This document shows, piece by piece, positions 740 to 31,762 of a stretch of 53,810 nucleotides of DNA. Location of the stretch: positions 1-53,810 of IMG/VR virus record IMGVR_UViG_3300030099_000437; one strand, 5' to 3'. This DNA is from a virus (taxonomy: Duplodnaviria; Caudoviricetes). Every line of letters starts with the position of its first letter. Positions within the stretch are counted from its first letter, which is position 1. The notes beneath the pieces were generated by a model. That model had not been told where the DNA came from and ran no database searches. It worked only from the letters and a program-made list of their open reading frames with translations. A program made the position numbers and the translations under genes.

Positions 740-3700
740 CTATCCGAGGGCTATCGCAAGTGCGGTGGGGTCATCTGTAGTAAACCCTGCACTAGTTAAA
801 TATGTTTTTAAATCTGTTAATGCAACCTGCTTCATTGTTCCATTATCGTTTGTTACTAATCTATCTGCATCTGCAAGAGTTGTAGATGAAGCAGCTGTAC
901 CACCGTCCATAATATTTAACTCCGCAGCAGTAGCATTTATAGAAGTTCCTCCTATTTGTAAAGTAGTAGCATTGACTTCACCACTAGAACCGTAGATGAC
1001 TGCTTTGCTATTTACTATTGTTCCTGCAGAAGAACCGTCAACTAAATTTAACTCTGCACCTGTAGAAGTAACTGCTGTTCCTCCATAGTTTAAGTTACTC
1101 GCAGCTATATTAACTTCACCTGTTCCTTTTGGTGATATGTCAATATCTATGTTTGAGTCATCTCCTGATGCTCCTACAACTACTGAACCACCTGAGGCTG
1201 AGTTTGTTACCTCTAATTGATTAACTGCAGAAGAAGCAGTCTGTAGCATAATAAGTTCATTACCGTTAGCATCAGCTATAAATCCACCATCAGCAAACTT
1301 TGGAGCAGTAAGTGTTTTGTTAGTTAGAGTCTTTGTTGTACCTGCAAAGTATGTATCTAACAAATCTACGTCAAAGTATTTTGCTGCAGTAGCTGATGTA
1401 TCAAACATTAAGATACCATCATTGTTAGCAACGGCTGTGCTTGTGTCAACACTTATTGCAGAGTTATCAGCGACAGTATTTAATTCAGCACCTGTAGCAT
1501 TAAGACCTGTCACATTTCTGTTATCATCTACATAAGTCTTAATAGCTTTAGCAGAAGCTAGGGTGTCATCACTACCTGATACAGAACTTATATCTGTGTC
1601 TATAGACGCTATGCCATCTAATACATTAAGTTCTGCAGCAGTTGCTGTTACGTTTGTACCACCAATATCAAGAGTAGTTACAGATAATTCACCTGCTACT
1701 GTTGCAACACCATTGGCTAAAGTAATAAGGTCTGTATCATCTGTGTGTCCTATTGTAGAGCCATTGATTAGAACATCATCTATATCAAGAGAGCCACCTG
1801 TAATAAGACCTGTAGTTGTTATTGTAGAAGACCCTGTATCTATTGTGCCAAAGCCACTTGTAATACTACCTGAGTCTAATGCTCCAACTGTAGTAGCAGC
1901 AGTAGTTACTAGGTTAGGCATTGCAGTTATTTCGTCATCAAAATATGCTGCAAGGTCAGTAACAGCTACCTGAACCATTGTGCCATTATCGTTTAAAACA
2001 ACTCTGTCTGCGTCAGCTACTGTTGTTGATGTTGCTGATGTATTACCATCTACTATGTTAAGTTCAGTAGCAGTAGATGTTACACCATCAAGAATATTAA
2101 GTTCTGCAGTTGTGGCTGTCACACCATCTAATATATTCAATTCTGCAGGAGTAGAAGTAATTGCTGTATCACTGTCTGCAGCTAATACTGGTAATGTTCC
2201 AGATTGATTAGGTAGCTTTATAGTTCTGTCTGCAGTAGGGTCTGTTATTGTTAGTGTTGTTTCGTGAGCATCTGCAGTAGCACCTTCAAATACAATAGCA
2301 TTCTGTGCATTCATTGTGACAGTATCTACAACTGTCTGTGTTCCACTAACTGTTAAGTTTCCTGTAACAGTAAGATTATCACCTATTGTTACTTCAGAAG
2401 TACCATGTCCTATTGTTATGGCTGTACCTGAGATGCCTGTACCAATAGAGACTGACTCACTACTATTAGCTGTGTCAATAATTAAATAAGCATCAGAACC
2501 TTGTTTAATCGTAAATGCTGTTGCTGAGTTATCAGATACAGCTACATTGATGTCTGTGCCATCTGCACTGATAGAGTCAAGGGCAATGTCACCTACATTA
2601 GTGATAGCGTTATCGTTAAAAGATGTAGCACCTAAAGATACTGTACCTGTTGCTGTAAGATTATCAGAACCAATATCTATATTACCAAAGCCTGATGTAA
2701 TAGAACCACTATCTAATGCACCTACAGTTGTAGCCGCTGTTGTAACAAGATTAGGCATGGCTGTAATCTCATCATCAAAGTATGCAGCTAAGTCTGTTAC
2801 AGCAACTTGTACCATAGTACCGTTGTCATTCATTACTACTCTGTCAGCATCTGCGACAGTAGTAGATGTAGCTGAAGTATCACCGTCTACTATATTAAGT
2901 TCTGCTGTTGTAGATGTTACCCCATCCATAATATTGAGTTCGGATGTAGTAGCAGTAACTCCATCCATAATGTTTAACTCAGAGGTAGTTGCAGTTACAC
3001 CATCAAGAATGTTTAACTCAGCTGCAGTAGAGGTAACATTTGTTCCACCTATATCTAAGGTGGTCATTGAGACTTCACCTGCTGCAGTAACATTAGCACC
3101 ACTAAATGTTAATGCTGTAGTGCTACCAGACTTTATTATAAGATTACCTGAACTATTTGTTAGAGCAGCATATTGTGTTCCTGCATCCTTTAAAAGAACA
3201 TCTGCTCCATCTGCATCTAGTATTATATCACCTGCAACATCTAATGTCAAGTCTCCAGATGATAAATCTATCTCTGTGCCATCAATAGTTATATTATCTA
3301 CTACAACCCCTGCATTAGCTGTAACAGCCCCTGTAACCCCCAAAGTTCCTGCTATAGTGGCATTCTCGTCTACGTCTAGGGTATCTACATGGGCTGTACC
3401 ATCAAGGTACAAGTCCTTAAATTCTGTGCCTGAAGCACCTAAGTCTATATCATTATCTGTGACAGGAAGTATAGAACCATCTTGTATTCTTATTTGCTCA
3501 ACTGCAGCACTGCTAACTTCACTAAAGAAACCTACTCTATTATTACTTGTGTCAACTACAACTTTATTTAAAGCATCAGTATCTGCAATAAGTCCTACAT
3601 ATGCACCCTCAGTAGATGAACCATCATGGTTATGTCCACCACTGAATGCAAATGCTGTAACGATTGCATTTAATTCTGCATTAATCGGAGCAGACTTTAC

Positions 3701-3751
3701 AACCTGACCTGACTGAATATCTGCAGTATTTGTCCTTGCATAACCTGCCAT
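740..3751 (-). CDS. Tail fibre protein with internal repeats
   Basis: 1003 aa, T/S/G/D-rich, 13-aa ELNxxDGVT repeats and a duplicated ~100-aa block; follows tail tubular genes. Confidence 0.8.
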   Translation of the reverse strand: MAGYARTNTADIQSGQVVKSAPINAELNAIVTAFAFSGGHNHDGSSTEGAYVGLIADTDALNKVVVDTSNNRVGFFSEVSSAAVEQIRIQDGSILPVTDNDIDLGASGTEFKDLYLDGTAHVDTLDVDENATIAGTLGVTGAVTANAGVVVDNITIDGTEIDLSSGDLTLDVAGDIILDADGADVLLKDAGTQYAALTNSSGNLIIKSGSTTALTFSGANVTAAGEVSMTTLDIGGTNVTSTAAELNILDGVTATTSELNIMDGVTATTSELNIMDGVTSTTAELNIVDGDTSATSTTVADADRVVMNDNGTMVQVAVTDLAAYFDDEITAMPNLVTTAATTVGALDSGSITSGFGNIDIGSDNLTATGTVSLGATSFNDNAITNVGDIALDSISADGTDINVAVSDNSATAFTIKQGSDAYLIIDTANSSESVSIGTGISGTAITIGHGTSEVTIGDNLTVTGNLTVSGTQTVVDTVTMNAQNAIVFEGATADAHETTLTITDPTADRTIKLPNQSGTLPVLAADSDTAITSTPAELNILDGVTATTAELNILDGVTSTATELNIVDGNTSATSTTVADADRVVLNDNGTMVQVAVTDLAAYFDDEITAMPNLVTTAATTVGALDSGSITSGFGTIDTGSSTITTTGLITGGSLDIDDVLINGSTIGHTDDTDLITLANGVATVAGELSVTTLDIGGTNVTATAAELNVLDGIASIDTDISSVSGSDDTLASAKAIKTYVDDNRNVTGLNATGAELNTVADNSAISVDTSTAVANNDGILMFDTSATAAKYFDVDLLDTYFAGTTKTLTNKTLTAPKFADGGFIADANGNELIMLQTASSAVNQLEVTNSASGGSVVVGASGDDSNIDIDISPKGTGEVNIAASNLNYGGTAVTSTGAELNLVDGSSAGTIVNSKAVIYGSSGEVNATTLQIGGTSINATAAELNIMDGGTAASSTTLADADRLVTNDNGTMKQVALTDLKTYLTSAGFTTDDPTALAIALG

Positions 3752-22355: not shown

Positions 22356-22688
22356 CTATGCCTTTGTTAGCTTATAACCTTTAGCCTTTGCAGCAGCTCT
22401 GATTTGTGCAAGAGTCATTGCTCCACCTCTAGCACTACCCTTCTTAGTAGCACCACCTTTAGCGTAGCCTTTCTTCTTCATCATTCCACCCTTCGCCATT
22501 TTACCTTTTCCGTCCATAGCGAATGCAGGAATCATCTTTCCTGTCTTAGGGTCTTTTCTCATAGGCATCTTTGCACCGCCCTTTGCATAACCCTTCTTCT
22601 TCATAGCTCCACCTCGAGCCATACCCTTCTTTTTCATTGCACCGCCTCTTGCCATGCCTTTCTTTTTCATTGGTCTTTTCATAGCCAT
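22356..22688 (-). CDS. Basic repeat protein (KKGxAxGG repeats)
   Basis: 110 aa, six xA[KR]GG units, AGGAGG RBS. Confidence 0.7.
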   Translation of the reverse strand: MAMKRPMKKKGMARGGAMKKKGMARGGAMKKKGYAKGGAKMPMRKDPKTGKMIPAFAMDGKGKMAKGGMMKKKGYAKGGATKKGSARGGAMTLAQIRAAAKAKGYKLTKA

Positions 22689-24680: not shown

Positions 24681-24711
24681 CTAGTTATACTCCTAACACA
24701 TTCTTTGTCAA
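24681..24711 (-). promoter_or_regulatory. Late-arm promoter
   Basis: TTGACA-N16-TATAACTAG, same architecture as 8171..8200. Confidence 0.7.
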
Positions 24712-24740
24712 GAATAAACGACAAAAAATTAACTTCTATT

Positions 24741-24855
24741 ATGTATACTTAAAGTAACTTAAATAATTACTTAAGAGGAGTAGGAGATTAAGTGTACTTT
24801 AAGTCTTATTATGTATTACATTATGTATTATATAGGATTATTTACTTAAAGTCAA
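24741..24855 (-). repeat. Promoter plus AT-rich element, copy L (putative origin)
   Basis: TTGACT-N17-TATAAT followed by blocks shared with 31658..31762. Confidence 0.65.
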
Positions 24856-25238
24856 GCCCCCTCCCTCTCTTTTTTCGTTACAGGTAGGTTTTTCAGGGTA
24901 AAATCACTGTGTTGCCGCTTAACACCCCCGGTATACATACAATATCCTCTCAGAGGCTTAAATTTAGCCACTGAGTAGGGGTAAATGTAATCCATATGGT
25001 AGACTGCCTGTAGTCCTACTCCCCCTCCTCAGAGGGGAAATATAAAGACCTACTGAATTTTACCATGCAGCAGCCTTACGCAGCAGTGTGCAGCAGCTAA
25101 ATGCCTAAAAAATAGGCATAATATTACAACTGCACAAAAAACAGGCAGTTATATACAGTGGTTAACACCCTAAATTACCCCTCTCTGGCAGAGTACGAGT
25201 ACGCATACGTACAGGGGTGGGGTGGCACTTGCCACGGT

Positions 25239-25288
25239 GTTCTCGTTTTGTTCTAATCCTGTCCTTAAATTGAGAACATTTAGTGAAC
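25239..25288. promoter_or_regulatory. Two alphaproteobacterial LexA (SOS) boxes
   Basis: GTTC-N7-GTTC at 25239-25253 and GAAC-N7-GAAC at 25274-25288. Confidence 0.7.
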
Positions 25289-25296
25289 AAATAGAG

Positions 25297-25386
25297 TAAG
25301 TCATTGTTTTTATTAAGTATTCATAACAATAATACATTATCAGTAATTTTTTTTGTCTTAAAAACTCAATAAAATCAGTAAGTTAT
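25297..25386. promoter_or_regulatory. IHF-like sites
   Basis: AATCAG-TAAG-TTA (plus, ~25373) and AAACAA-TGAC-TTA (minus, ~25297-25309) resemble WATCARNNNNTTR, with A-tracts. Confidence 0.4.
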
Positions 25387-25567
25387 CAAAAAGTTTGGTA
25401 TTTATGTATTTTTTTTGTTGCAATCTGTTTTTCGTTATGCCATTGTTTAGGAGTTCAGAAGACGGAACACCAGAACTAAACGGTTAAATGTCCAACTTGT
25501 TCTAACCTGAAGCACTGAACAGAATATGACTAAATGACTACCGCCTAAATAAAAAAGTTTTTTAATC

Positions 25568-25597
25568 TTGACTTTAATTTTAAAATAAGGTTAGACT
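25568..25597 (+). promoter_or_regulatory. Early promoter upstream of candidate ncRNA
   Basis: TTGACT-N18-TAGACT with A/T-tract UP-like element upstream. Confidence 0.65.
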
Positions 25598-25603
25598 ATA
25601 AAA

Positions 25604-25983
25604 CAAGTCTTGCGGATACTAGCAAGCCACCAAGAGCGGAATGTAAGTCTCATTGTCTGGGTGATATCAGACTAGGTTAACTCCTCTATTGCCGATAATG
25701 CTTAATTGCATGGGCTAACCTTAACGCTTGCCATATGTGAGTATTGGGTGTCTTAAAAGGGTGTAGAGTATCCACCAGAGCTACGGTCAATCTGTCTGGT
25801 GAGCCGAATGAGTAAGGTCAATGTGGCTACGCTTGTTGTCTGTTATTGCGTGGAATGTAAATCGCAGGAGTTTCTAGGCTAAGTCCAACCATTGTTGTCC
25901 TTTGGGTGAATCCATAAGCCCATAAAATATATCTTAATGGGGGAGTAGCTATGGTGACATAGGTGACAAGCTCCCCCAATAAG
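25604..25983 (+). ncRNA. Candidate large structured ncRNA (~380 nt), family unknown
   Basis: No listed ORF, raised GC, about ten helices including crossing pairings and a duplicated GGAATGTAA loop. Confidence 0.65.
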
Positions 25984-26292
25984 TTTTACTCAGTGATACC
26001 TCTAGGAAAGTAATGAGGTATACCTATGACAATTTCAAAAAAAGCTGAAGATTTTAATTTATTAGTAGTACGCAATATCGTTGACAATTTTTCTCGAAGA
26101 AATGACAACAAAAAAGGAGTACATTCTTTTATATATAAGCTAACGCATAAGAACTATAGGTGCAATGTAAAATCTGTTACCTATGGTGGGAAAACATACT
26201 TGAGAGGTCAATTCTTACCCAAAGTTTTTTGGGAATTAAGATAAGACTTTACAACAACAATTTTTTAATATAGAGGTATCACTAAGTAAAAC
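25983..26292. repeat. 22-bp inverted repeat enclosing ORF 26026..26244
   Basis: GTTTTACTCAGTGATACCTCTA (25983-26004) vs TAGAGGTATCACTAAGTAAAAC (26271-26292), 21/22 complementary. Confidence 0.85.
26026..26244 (+). CDS. Hypothetical basic protein (72 aa)
   Basis: GAGGT RBS at 26015, AT-rich. Confidence 0.55.
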   Translation: MTISKKAEDFNLLVVRNIVDNFSRRNDNKKGVHSFIYKLTHKNYRCNVKSVTYGGKTYLRGQFLPKVFWELR

Positions 26293-26307
26293 AATGAGAG
26301 GTGAAAT

Positions 26308-26931
26308 ATGATAGATAATATTATAGGTACATACTACCTATCTAAATCTGGGGAAAAGCTACATGGGTTTGCATGGTATCTTGACGCATACAAATCTTGT
26401 GTCGTTATCTCCAAGAGGTTTGGTGTACCATTAAAGGTGGTGGTGGGTGTATGCTCCGCACTATCTCCGAATAATAAATGGCATAAGAATATTATTGACA
26501 CTGAGAATATGGTGCTTGCCTATAAATCAGGCATACCATTGGATGAGGTCAAGGTGTCAACGTATAGCAATAATAAAGCAAAAGCTATTGAGATGCTTAT
26601 GCTACCCAAAGCTACTAAGCAAGACATAAGGGATATACTGTTTGGTAAATCTGGGCATAAGACTAGGGCATTTTTTGACTGCATATATGGGTGTAAGACG
26701 AACAAGGATACAGTATGTGTAGACGGACACGCTAAGTCTATCTATATGGGTGAAAAATTTGCCCTGAGTAGTAACAAAAGCAATATGACACCCAAACAAT
26801 ACTTGACCATATCACAAGCCTATATTGATGCGTGTGATGAGATAAACAAGCGAGAGGGTACAAGCTACCTACCCTATCAAATACAAGCTATAACATGGGT
26901 AGCTTGGAGGAGAATACATGGCATCACATAA
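26308..26931 (+). CDS. HhH DNA-glycosylase-like early protein (DUF7178-like)
   Basis: WY...SALSP..W..N, G.K..AF, VCVDGHA, Y...A, QAITW motif series. Confidence 0.6.
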   Translation: MIDNIIGTYYLSKSGEKLHGFAWYLDAYKSCVVISKRFGVPLKVVVGVCSALSPNNKWHKNIIDTENMVLAYKSGIPLDEVKVSTYSNNKAKAIEMLMLPKATKQDIRDILFGKSGHKTRAFFDCIYGCKTNKDTVCVDGHAKSIYMGEKFALSSNKSNMTPKQYLTISQAYIDACDEINKREGTSYLPYQIQAITWVAWRRIHGIT

Positions 26932-27184
26932 TAGAGAAATTAGAAATAGGATTAGGCTATCATTGGCAAGCTATGCCTACGAATACCATGATGATAGCCT
27001 GATGACTGACGCAGAATTTGACAAGCTATCAAGAGAGATAGACCCTAACGAAAAGACAGGCAATGAGTTGATAGATAGATTTTTTCGTGAAGAGTTTATG
27101 CCTGACTCTGGAATGTGGATTAGGAAACACCCTGAGTTGTGGAAGTTGGAGCATATTTATAAAACATTGAGAGGTAAAAAATGA
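26918..27184 (+). CDS. Stand-alone NAD-ligase domain Ia-like protein
   Basis: SYAYEYHDDSLMTDAEFDKLSREI resembles LigA Ia motif YY..D.P..SDAEYD.L..EL. Confidence 0.7.
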   Translation: MASHNREIRNRIRLSLASYAYEYHDDSLMTDAEFDKLSREIDPNEKTGNELIDRFFREEFMPDSGMWIRKHPELWKLEHIYKTLRGKK

Positions 27185-31661: not shown

Positions 31662-31762
31662 CAGATTTTTATTTGTCAGTATAATATATACATAATGTAT
31701 AACATAAAGTACACTTTAACTCCTACTACTTAAAGTAAATAAAACTTTAAGTATACTTTAAG
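31658..31762 (+). repeat. Promoter plus AT-rich element, copy R (putative origin)
   Basis: TTGACA-N16-TATAAT with TGACA/TGTCA dyad, followed by blocks shared with 24741..24855. Confidence 0.65.

Follow-up and report, generated by a model that had tools for sequence, protein, structure and literature searches.

The window analysed here is the entire 53,810-base record IMGVR_UViG_3300030099_000437, which has a completeness rating of 97%. Genes encoding the portal and large terminase are on the minus strand. The plus strand carries a block encoding a DNA methyltransferase, an integrase, a primase/helicase, a family A DNA polymerase and a ribonucleotide reductase. The nearest relative of the DNA polymerase is that of Roseobacter phage CRP-6 (53.6% identity). 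Leftward genes end at 24724, and the ensuing 1.3-kb gap lacks ORFs of 100 amino acids or more. Across the gap, the rightward block opens with a listed ORF of 72 amino acids (ORF72, 26026 to 26244) and a gene matching the Pfam family DUF7178 (26308 to 26931, E = 7.5e-33), both on the plus strand. We focused on the leader at 25600 to 25987, which occupies part of the gap ahead of ORF72. In SIO1-like phages, cobaviruses, cyanopodoviruses and CRP-1, DUF7178 genes are early and located close to the left genome end. Hence, it is reasonable to place the leader at the head of the early transcript. The leader is present in a single copy in its own record and, therefore, is not a template repeat or array. 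No target, partner protein or RNA-binding gene for the leader was recognised among the ORFs scanned, and no reverse transcriptase or repressor among those scanned beside the early operon and in the early block. Sequence searches with 24700 to 26320 found no match in 50,697 phage records.

Two promoters point away from each other in the gap. The rightward promoter precedes the leader and is sigma70-like (TTGACT-18-TAGACT, plus strand, 25568 to 25597). It was identified by consensus scan with 9/12 matches. Such sites are not enriched in the region, where 7 were found and 8.0 ± 3.0 are expected from shuffled sequences. The promoter, already proposed in an earlier note on this DNA, is invariant in 5/5 aligned relatives. 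Downstream, the sequence diverges within a few nucleotides of the −10 box. The leftward promoter has a near-consensus sigma70-type sequence (TTGACT-17-TATAAT, 11/12 matches, minus strand, 24827 to 24855) and faces the virion genes. Approximately 700 nt of non-coding DNA lie between the two (24870 to 25560), and the left part of this stretch (24900 to 25199) has a GC content of 0.44–0.46. A function at the DNA level is probable, for instance as an origin, a set of regulator sites or a packaging site.

The leader does not encode a protein on the plus strand. No ORF of 30 amino acids or more is found there between 25604 and 25983, and the longest stop-free frame is 41 codons. The GC content is 0.43–0.455 over 25600 to 25999, compared with 0.27–0.35 in flanking intergenic DNA. 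Both observations bear out the description, in the earlier note, of some 380 nt of GC-raised sequence without an ORF. That note could assign the leader to no known RNA family, and the Rfam scan that it proposed agrees. Briefly, Rfam 15 gave no match at gathering scores anywhere in the window. With permissive filters, four chance-level matches appeared between 25350 and 26350 (E = 3.3–9.7), all far under gathering scores. The leaders of six related loci (L002, L010, L001, L033, L036 and L024) also had no match. In being a large structured phage RNA of unassigned function, the leader resembles ROOL and GOLLD. ROOL and GOLLD RNAs are about 500–800 nt in length and frequently neighbour tRNA genes. 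In contrast, the leader is about 390 nt, there are no tRNA genes in the 53.8 kb (ARAGORN) and Rfam has no match. Hence, the leader does not fit the ROOL/GOLLD type.

To place the leader among relatives, loci were anchored on DUF7178. Three came from IMG/VR and 33 from metagenomes. Leader types were then sorted by BLAST with exemplars. These loci, from a group of widespread marine podo-like phages, have a slot delimited by the conserved promoter on one side and an SD hairpin, also conserved, on the other. Within the slot, there are at least three mutually unrelated non-coding cassettes (types A, B and C), together with hybrids, ranging from 190 to 440 nt. The window has a type A cassette, the variable core of which (25600 to 25935, plus strand) is replaced by unrelated sequence in close relatives. 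Type A is also found in L006, which is identical, and in L036, which is 90% identical over 287 nt and lacks 25628 to 25650. Type B cassettes are about 300 nt and occur in 18 loci, three of which are cut by contig ends. Type C is represented by L001, with the same leader in L004, L007 and L008, and by L033. No BLAST match was obtained between types A, B and C, and they have no short motif in common except the terminal hairpin. Three exact leader or right-flank patterns were used to search IMG/VR for further type A homologues and returned nothing, nothing and only the known L004. A search with the GGGGGAG-hairpin pattern returned L004 and an unrelated terminator in L005.

The comparison with L001 delimits the exchange. 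The flanks align over 938 columns with 80% identity, gaps counted, and the DUF7178 proteins are 98% identical. Between the flanks, the leaders are unrelated, and that of L001 is about 130 nt shorter. The replaced segment extends from just past the −10 box to the terminal GGGGGAG hairpin. Hence, with the promoter kept and the sequence downstream replaced, the exchanged unit is the transcribed leader itself. Domains are also shuffled. In L010, a unique 3′ part follows the 5′ domain of type B, which is all that this leader has in common with that type. For L033, homology to type C is confined to the 3′ 118 nt. Both occupy the same slot, as does the type A variant of L036. Slot-covering loci with DUF7178 proteins 97–100% identical to that of the window carry type A, an A variant, type C, a C variant or a B hybrid. 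At the level of titles and abstracts, we found no description of such exchangeable leader cassettes in the literature.

This behaviour is unusual among phage early leaders and orphan structured RNAs. In phi29, transcription from the leftmost early promoter first yields the pRNA, which is structured and differs strongly in sequence among relatives. The likeness to our leader is that of a structured RNA, divergent between relatives, that would be made first from an early promoter. However, the leader has no Rfam match, the phage has a classical large terminase and the cassettes have no demonstrated common fold. As a separate observation, several copies of a TTGACGATT / TTAACGATT-like word occur just upstream of type B leaders in L013 (447 to 530), L015, L021 and L026, perhaps as operator repeats or −35 boxes in a stack.

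The earlier note suggested a possible partnership of the leader with ORF72 and with a glycosylase-like product of the 26308 gene. Neither the partnership with ORF72 nor the glycosylase label is supported. ORF72 has no Pfam, PHROG or NCBIfam family. The first ORF has two main forms, one in the window and L010, the other in L036, L001 and L033. The corresponding leaders are type A, a B hybrid, an A variant, type C and a C variant, respectively. The assortment of leaders is therefore independent of the first ORF, and a dedicated RNA–protein pair is less likely on this evidence. For the 26308 product, DUF7178 was the only Pfam match, with no NCBIfam family and no meaningful PDB sequence match. Its predicted model is all-helical and of low confidence (pLDDT 64), and a fold search gave nothing at E ≤ 0.001, its best-ranked entries being unrelated helical proteins. 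Assignment as a glycosylase was rejected. The non-significant fold matches were mostly to sigma factor or cyclin helical domains (E = 0.26–6, TM about 0.25) and are a lead rather than evidence of function.

Covariation was assessed for type B using RNAalifold and nine distinct sequences. The consensus has 80 pairs, 15 of which show compensatory changes, and 97.9% of cells are paired. In shuffled alignments, 9.8 ± 1.6 pairs changed on both sides and none of 500 reached 15. Controls in which the partners were slid by 1–3 columns gave only 1–5 compensatory pairs. Many of the pairs are G-U on the plus strand and, therefore, the RNA is read rightward. Mean nucleotide identity is 82% for type B leaders, compared with 84% for the DUF7178 gene and 71% for the first ORF. 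Type B is clearly a genuine structured RNA. In at least one cassette, covariation is no less clear than in a curated RNA family, and no cassette is in Rfam 15. We also built covariance models from closely related type B sequences, for the 3′ domain (R1) and the 5′ domain (R2). Neither matched the window with default filters. With filters off, the best matches in 25500 to 26100 had E-values of 0.38 (3.5 bits) and 0.96 (3.4 bits). Hence, types A and B are not demonstrably one family, although distant kinship is possible because models of such closely related sequences have a short reach. The segment 25875 to 25922 has a weak, non-significant resemblance to the type B three-way junction (3.5 bits).

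For type A, we began with the window sequence alone. The earlier note listed ten complementary pairs of strings. All ten are present, eight with perfect Watson–Crick complementarity and two requiring G-U pairs. Complementarity of this kind is expected by chance. There are 7 complementary pairs of 7 nt in the leader, compared with 3.87 ± 2.45 in dinucleotide shuffles, and 46 of 300 shuffles reach 7. Similarly, the minimum free energy of the plus strand is −110 kcal/mol and that of shuffles is −106.0 ± 6.2 (z = −0.64; 29 of 100 shuffles are as good). For the minus strand, z = −1.08. Helices of the window sequence alone are no better than chance. The earlier note had named such an outcome as grounds against a folded RNA, and for the single sequence it is what we found. 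Substitutions in relatives point the other way.

In L036, there are 27 substitutions relative to the window. When these were introduced with the window sequence otherwise fixed, the energy of the consensus fold went from −93.7 to −87.5. Placing the same substitutions at random positions gave −73.9 ± 4.1, and none of 635 trials matched the real placement. Eight of the 27 fall in paired columns and all eight keep pairing, while the other 19 are in unpaired columns. Four of the eight make two compensatory pairs, G-C to A-U in the hairpin at 25655 to 25672 and C-G to U-A in the hairpin at 25698 to 25711. The remaining four are wobble-type single changes. Furthermore, the G-U pairs and wobble transitions between the window and L036 fit the plus strand only. 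The number of compensatory pairs is itself small, 2–3 from two sequences, and is reached in 74 of 538 column shuffles. Hence, the covariation proposed as a check in the earlier note is strong for type B and, by count alone, not significant for type A. Type A covariation depends on a single diverged homologue, L036, and the shuffle significance leans partly on predicted folds. The claim of a folded plus-strand RNA is nonetheless supported, by structure-preserving change in type A and by strong covariation in the sister cassette, type B.

Support is concentrated in local elements, all on the plus strand. The 5′ hairpin (CTTGC/GCAAG, 25609 to 25626) begins a few nucleotides from the predicted RNA 5′ end. 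Its stem is invariant and its loop has two changes in L036. A different hairpin is found near this position in the type C leader of L001. The next 23 nt (25628 to 25650) are missing from L036 and appear to be a dispensable spacer. There follows a 6-bp hairpin (GTCTGG/TCAGAC, 25655 to 25672), in which three of six pairs change in L036, from U-A to U-G, G-C to A-U and G-U to G-C, and all still pair. The 4-bp hairpin ATGC/GCAT (25698 to 25711) contains the second compensatory change. The 7-bp hairpin CACCAGA/TCTGGTG (25773 to 25801) has an invariant stem, and both L036 substitutions are in the loop. From these comparisons and the predicted consensus, type A is probably a folded RNA with supported local hairpins and nested helices.

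The multi-pseudoknotted fold of the earlier note is not supported. Its 69 pairs give four broken cells in L036, all in long-range or pseudoknot helices. One is in GGATACT/AGTATCC, one in AACTCCT/AGGAGTT and two are in ACCTTA/TAAGGT. Six of its 11 helices never vary in L036 and hence are uninformative. They include ATGGGCT/AGCCCAT, GGGTGTAG/CTACGCTT and CCGATA/TATTGG. The fold accounts for one compensatory change, which supports the local hairpin at 25655 to 25672.

Might the conserved sequence serve some purpose other than RNA? We consider it unlikely that the leader lacks a function as RNA, being instead a neutral mosaic spacer ahead of the first gene or an element that works as DNA, with structure conservation an artefact of few sequences. 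The chance-level folding of the single sequence, the availability of just two type A sequences and the partial dependence of shuffle significance on predicted folds would all be explained. However, the placement of L036 substitutions (0/635), wobble changes that suit only the plus strand, and type B, with its strong covariation and coding-level conservation, would not. An adjacent region serves as a control. The inter-promoter DNA at 25095 to 25345 has blocks of sequence strongly conserved in both phage groups and no compensatory change in 21 predicted pairs. A small protein encoded on the minus strand is extremely improbable. The candidate, a 50-amino-acid ORF with a TTG start (25827 to 25979), is open in both the window and L036. 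However, all eight nucleotide differences between them alter the protein, with six amino-acid changes and none synonymous. It also overlaps the terminal hairpin, which is present in type C leaders lacking the rest of the ORF. We rejected it as a gene on these grounds. Another minus-strand ORF (25686 to 25790) is broken in L036. Most likely, 25600 to 25987 is a real, modular, folded non-coding leader RNA of the early transcript.

Sequences from the leader are present in RNA libraries. Metatranscriptome run X18 has a 159-nt contig identical to 25600 to 25758, one end of which is three bases past the −10 box. Over the 3.1 kb compared, this 5′ part of the leader is all that X18 contains of the phage. 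Run X17 matches the conserved region from the terminal hairpin and SD hairpin to the start of ORF72, and also 26205 to 26354. The 25 letters preceding 25933 in X17 differ from the leader of the window. Hence, X17 derives from a relative and is not type A. Runs X19 and X20 had no contig matching the region. From contigs in RNA libraries, neither the ends nor the level of a transcript can be read, and some of the material in these libraries may be DNA. The X18 contig is therefore compatible with transcription and not proof of it.

The 3′ end of the leader is marked by a terminal hairpin followed by TTTT (25933 to 25987, plus strand, with TTTT at 25984 to 25987), common to types A and C. Its lower stem is 13 bp with one mismatch and includes GGGGGAG/CTCCCCC. 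Above an internal loop is a 5-bp upper stem with a GTGA cap. Pairs in the upper stem differ on both sides between types A and C, while the loop stays GNRA (GTGA or GCGA). A terminator scan made no call here despite the GC-rich stem and TTTT, because the stem encloses a branched upper part. The hairpin may be an attenuator or a 3′-end protector. In most type B leaders it is absent and the cassette runs directly into the SD hairpin. Other hairpins are found in this position elsewhere. In L010 (2745 to 2960), the unique 3′ part that follows the type B 5′ domain has a terminal GC-rich CCGG/CCAGG hairpin, and a similar GC-rich hairpin is inserted after the complete type B leader of L015 (about 2275 to 2320). 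Terminal hairpins appear to be exchangeable modules themselves.

Downstream of the slot, reading of the sequence identified a hairpin in which ATACCTC pairs with the SD of ORF72, GAGGTAT (25996 to 26021, plus strand). It is kept in aligned relatives. Type B phages have an equivalent TACCTC...GAGGTA hairpin, and the anti-SD and SD elements are identical across leader types. The anti-SD (25996 to 26002) is also within one arm of a long-range duplex. The 5′ arm (25983 to 26006) and the 3′ arm, just past ORF72 (26269 to 26292), both on the plus strand, were recognised by complementarity and compensatory changes. In the window, 22 nt of the 5′ arm are 95% complementary to 26271 to 26292 and 22 of 24 pairs form. 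The segment from 25983 that contains the anti-SD thus has two alternative partners, the local SD of ORF72 or 26269 to 26292. A duplex of 22–24 bp encloses ORF72 in 14/14 loci, with sequences that differ between the two phage groups. In the window group, 2 of its 24 positions show compensatory changes. For the type B group, the number is 1 of 23, and an internal mismatch is conserved. An invertible DNA switch, flanked by the same inverted repeat around ORF72, is less likely. The segment is inverted in 0/14 loci and several of the mismatches are G-T.

The early leader of T7, from the A1 promoter to R0.3, contains RNase III sites and, with the N leader of lambda, is a close comparison. Our locus resembles these in having a long non-coding leader after host-polymerase early promoters, with double-stranded stems at cistron borders, where early RNAs are separated in T7 and lambda. 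A covarying duplex of at least 20 bp at a cistron border is what would be expected of early RNA processed by RNase III in the manner of T7 or lambda. There are also differences. The stem here is long-range, with a loop of about 260 nt, rather than a local hairpin, and its processing is predicted from sequence. To our knowledge, the T7 leader is not replaced by unrelated structured cassettes and mainly carries further promoters. By this analogy, the long-range duplex looks like an RNase III-type processing stem, cleavage of which would release the leader and unmask the SD. A side observation concerns TAGAGTATC (25764 to 25772). It nearly duplicates TAGAGGTATC, a word of the 3′ arm, and can pair with the anti-SD segment at 25995 to 26004. 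The same nucleotides overlap the target of the loop pairing proposed in the earlier note, and L036 has no informative change there.

We tentatively favour a model in which the leader is a processed RNA of about 390 nt, made first and acting in trans on a variable host factor. This choice is made because unrelated folds replace each other in near-identical phages, because shuffling occurs at the level of domains and because cassettes are conserved within types and independent of the neighbouring ORF. The host RNA polymerase would transcribe the leader first, from the promoter at 25568 to 25597. The RNA would fold mainly into local hairpins and nested helices and would end in the GNRA-capped hairpin and U4. 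Either partial termination at the terminal hairpin or RNase III-type cleavage of the duplex, or the two together, would part it from the mRNA. The freed leader, about 390 nt, would accumulate. It could then target a host factor that varies among strains, as a decoy or as an anti-defence or takeover RNA.

A purely cis-acting 5′ UTR is a real possibility, nearly as likely as an RNA acting in trans. Such a leader would control mRNA stability, act in riboswitch- or thermometer-like sensing or mediate put-like antitermination, with the SD hairpin and duplex controlling ORF72 or genes downstream. Physical linkage of leader and early operon is constant, and the anti-SD/SD hairpin is kept in all leader types. 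With the anti-SD on the 5′ arm, formation of the duplex would free the SD, and TAGAGTATC is able to pair with the anti-SD. Type B leaders that lack the terminal hairpin fit a plain 5′ UTR. Moreover, no match to an RNA polymerase was found among the large ORFs scanned in the window, so that the host enzyme must drive a 15-kb operon. However, unrelated, shuffled cassettes of 190–440 nt would be unexpected in near-identical phages if their partner were an invariant downstream platform or the host RNA polymerase. Just one predicted helix, helix 6, connects type B with the platform. It lacks compensatory changes, and three of its pairs have breaks. The SD hairpin and the terminal hairpin with U4 are candidate parts of a riboswitch-type expression platform. 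Neither helix 6 in type B nor the comparison of the window with L036 in type A supports an alternative pairing that involves the variable domain. Rfam also has no matching riboswitch or antiterminator family. If the leader acts only in cis, interchangeable structured leaders before one conserved expression platform would still be unusual.

The exchange of cassettes also invites comparison with immunity regions. The immunity RNAs P1 c4 and P4 CI are cut from the leader of the operon that they control, and non-homologous cassettes between conserved flanks are the classic pattern of an immunity region. Here too, an RNA is proposed to be cut from the leader of its own operon, in a phage with an integrase. 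In a lysogen, the leader RNA would be produced constitutively and shut off the early operon, and cassettes would define heteroimmune groups. Such RNA immunity or superinfection exclusion would fit with the lack of a recognised repressor among the ORFs scanned by the early operon and in the early block, and with X18, where only the 5′ part of the leader is seen. We consider it very unlikely. Unlike P1 c4 and P4 CI, the cassettes have no specific complementarity to a downstream site. The best complementarity of the leader in the 54 kb is 13 nt (E = 0.37, not significant), and leaders of every type have identical anti-SD and SD elements. No Rfam family, immunity RNAs included, matches. Genomes of 185,579 bacterial and archaeal species, one each, contained no DUF7178 relative by two peptide patterns and no copy of the type B cassette DNA motif, which was the cassette queried, and no host or prophage was identified in them. 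Lysogeny is therefore unproven.

An RNA that acts in trans can be compared with known counter-defences. Phage early operons begin with anti-defence hot spots, such as T7 gene 0.3, and RNA anti-CRISPRs and pseudo-ToxI are also known. These are protein genes or short repeat mimics. The leader resembles them in that it would be first made on infection, is hypervariable in close relatives and is exchanged as modules within conserved linkers. In contrast, the cassettes are folded RNAs of 190–440 nt with no repeat and no recognised target. A bolder and more doubtful proposal is that the head of the early operon in these abundant marine phages is an RNA anti-defence island, where each swapped non-coding domain neutralises a different strain-specific host factor. 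If so, the 390-nt type A RNA of the window would be one such weapon. Almost all known phage functions in counter-defence or host takeover are those of proteins, whereas the first transcript here would be a large folded RNA. Should the host be their target, the cassettes would represent a new class of interaction between phage and host, based on RNA, and would add several new RNA folds.

Other features of the genome were observed in passing. A 29-nt inverted repeat, 86% complementary, has one copy upstream of the leftward genes (24776 to 24804) and the other inside the rightward block (31702 to 31730). These may be phage-specific promoters or regulator sites. An ORF of 88 amino acids (26918 to 27184) has a sole match, to the N-terminal Ia domain of NAD-dependent DNA ligase (Pfam Nlig-Ia, E = 2.6e-11), and would be a fragment-sized, stand-alone protein. 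Periodic repeats of 39 nt and 33 nt are found at 740 to 3751 and 22450 to 22688, inside minus-strand coding regions. They are located in an ORF of 1003 amino acids and in a run just downstream of an ORF of 225 amino acids, and indicate repetitive structural proteins.
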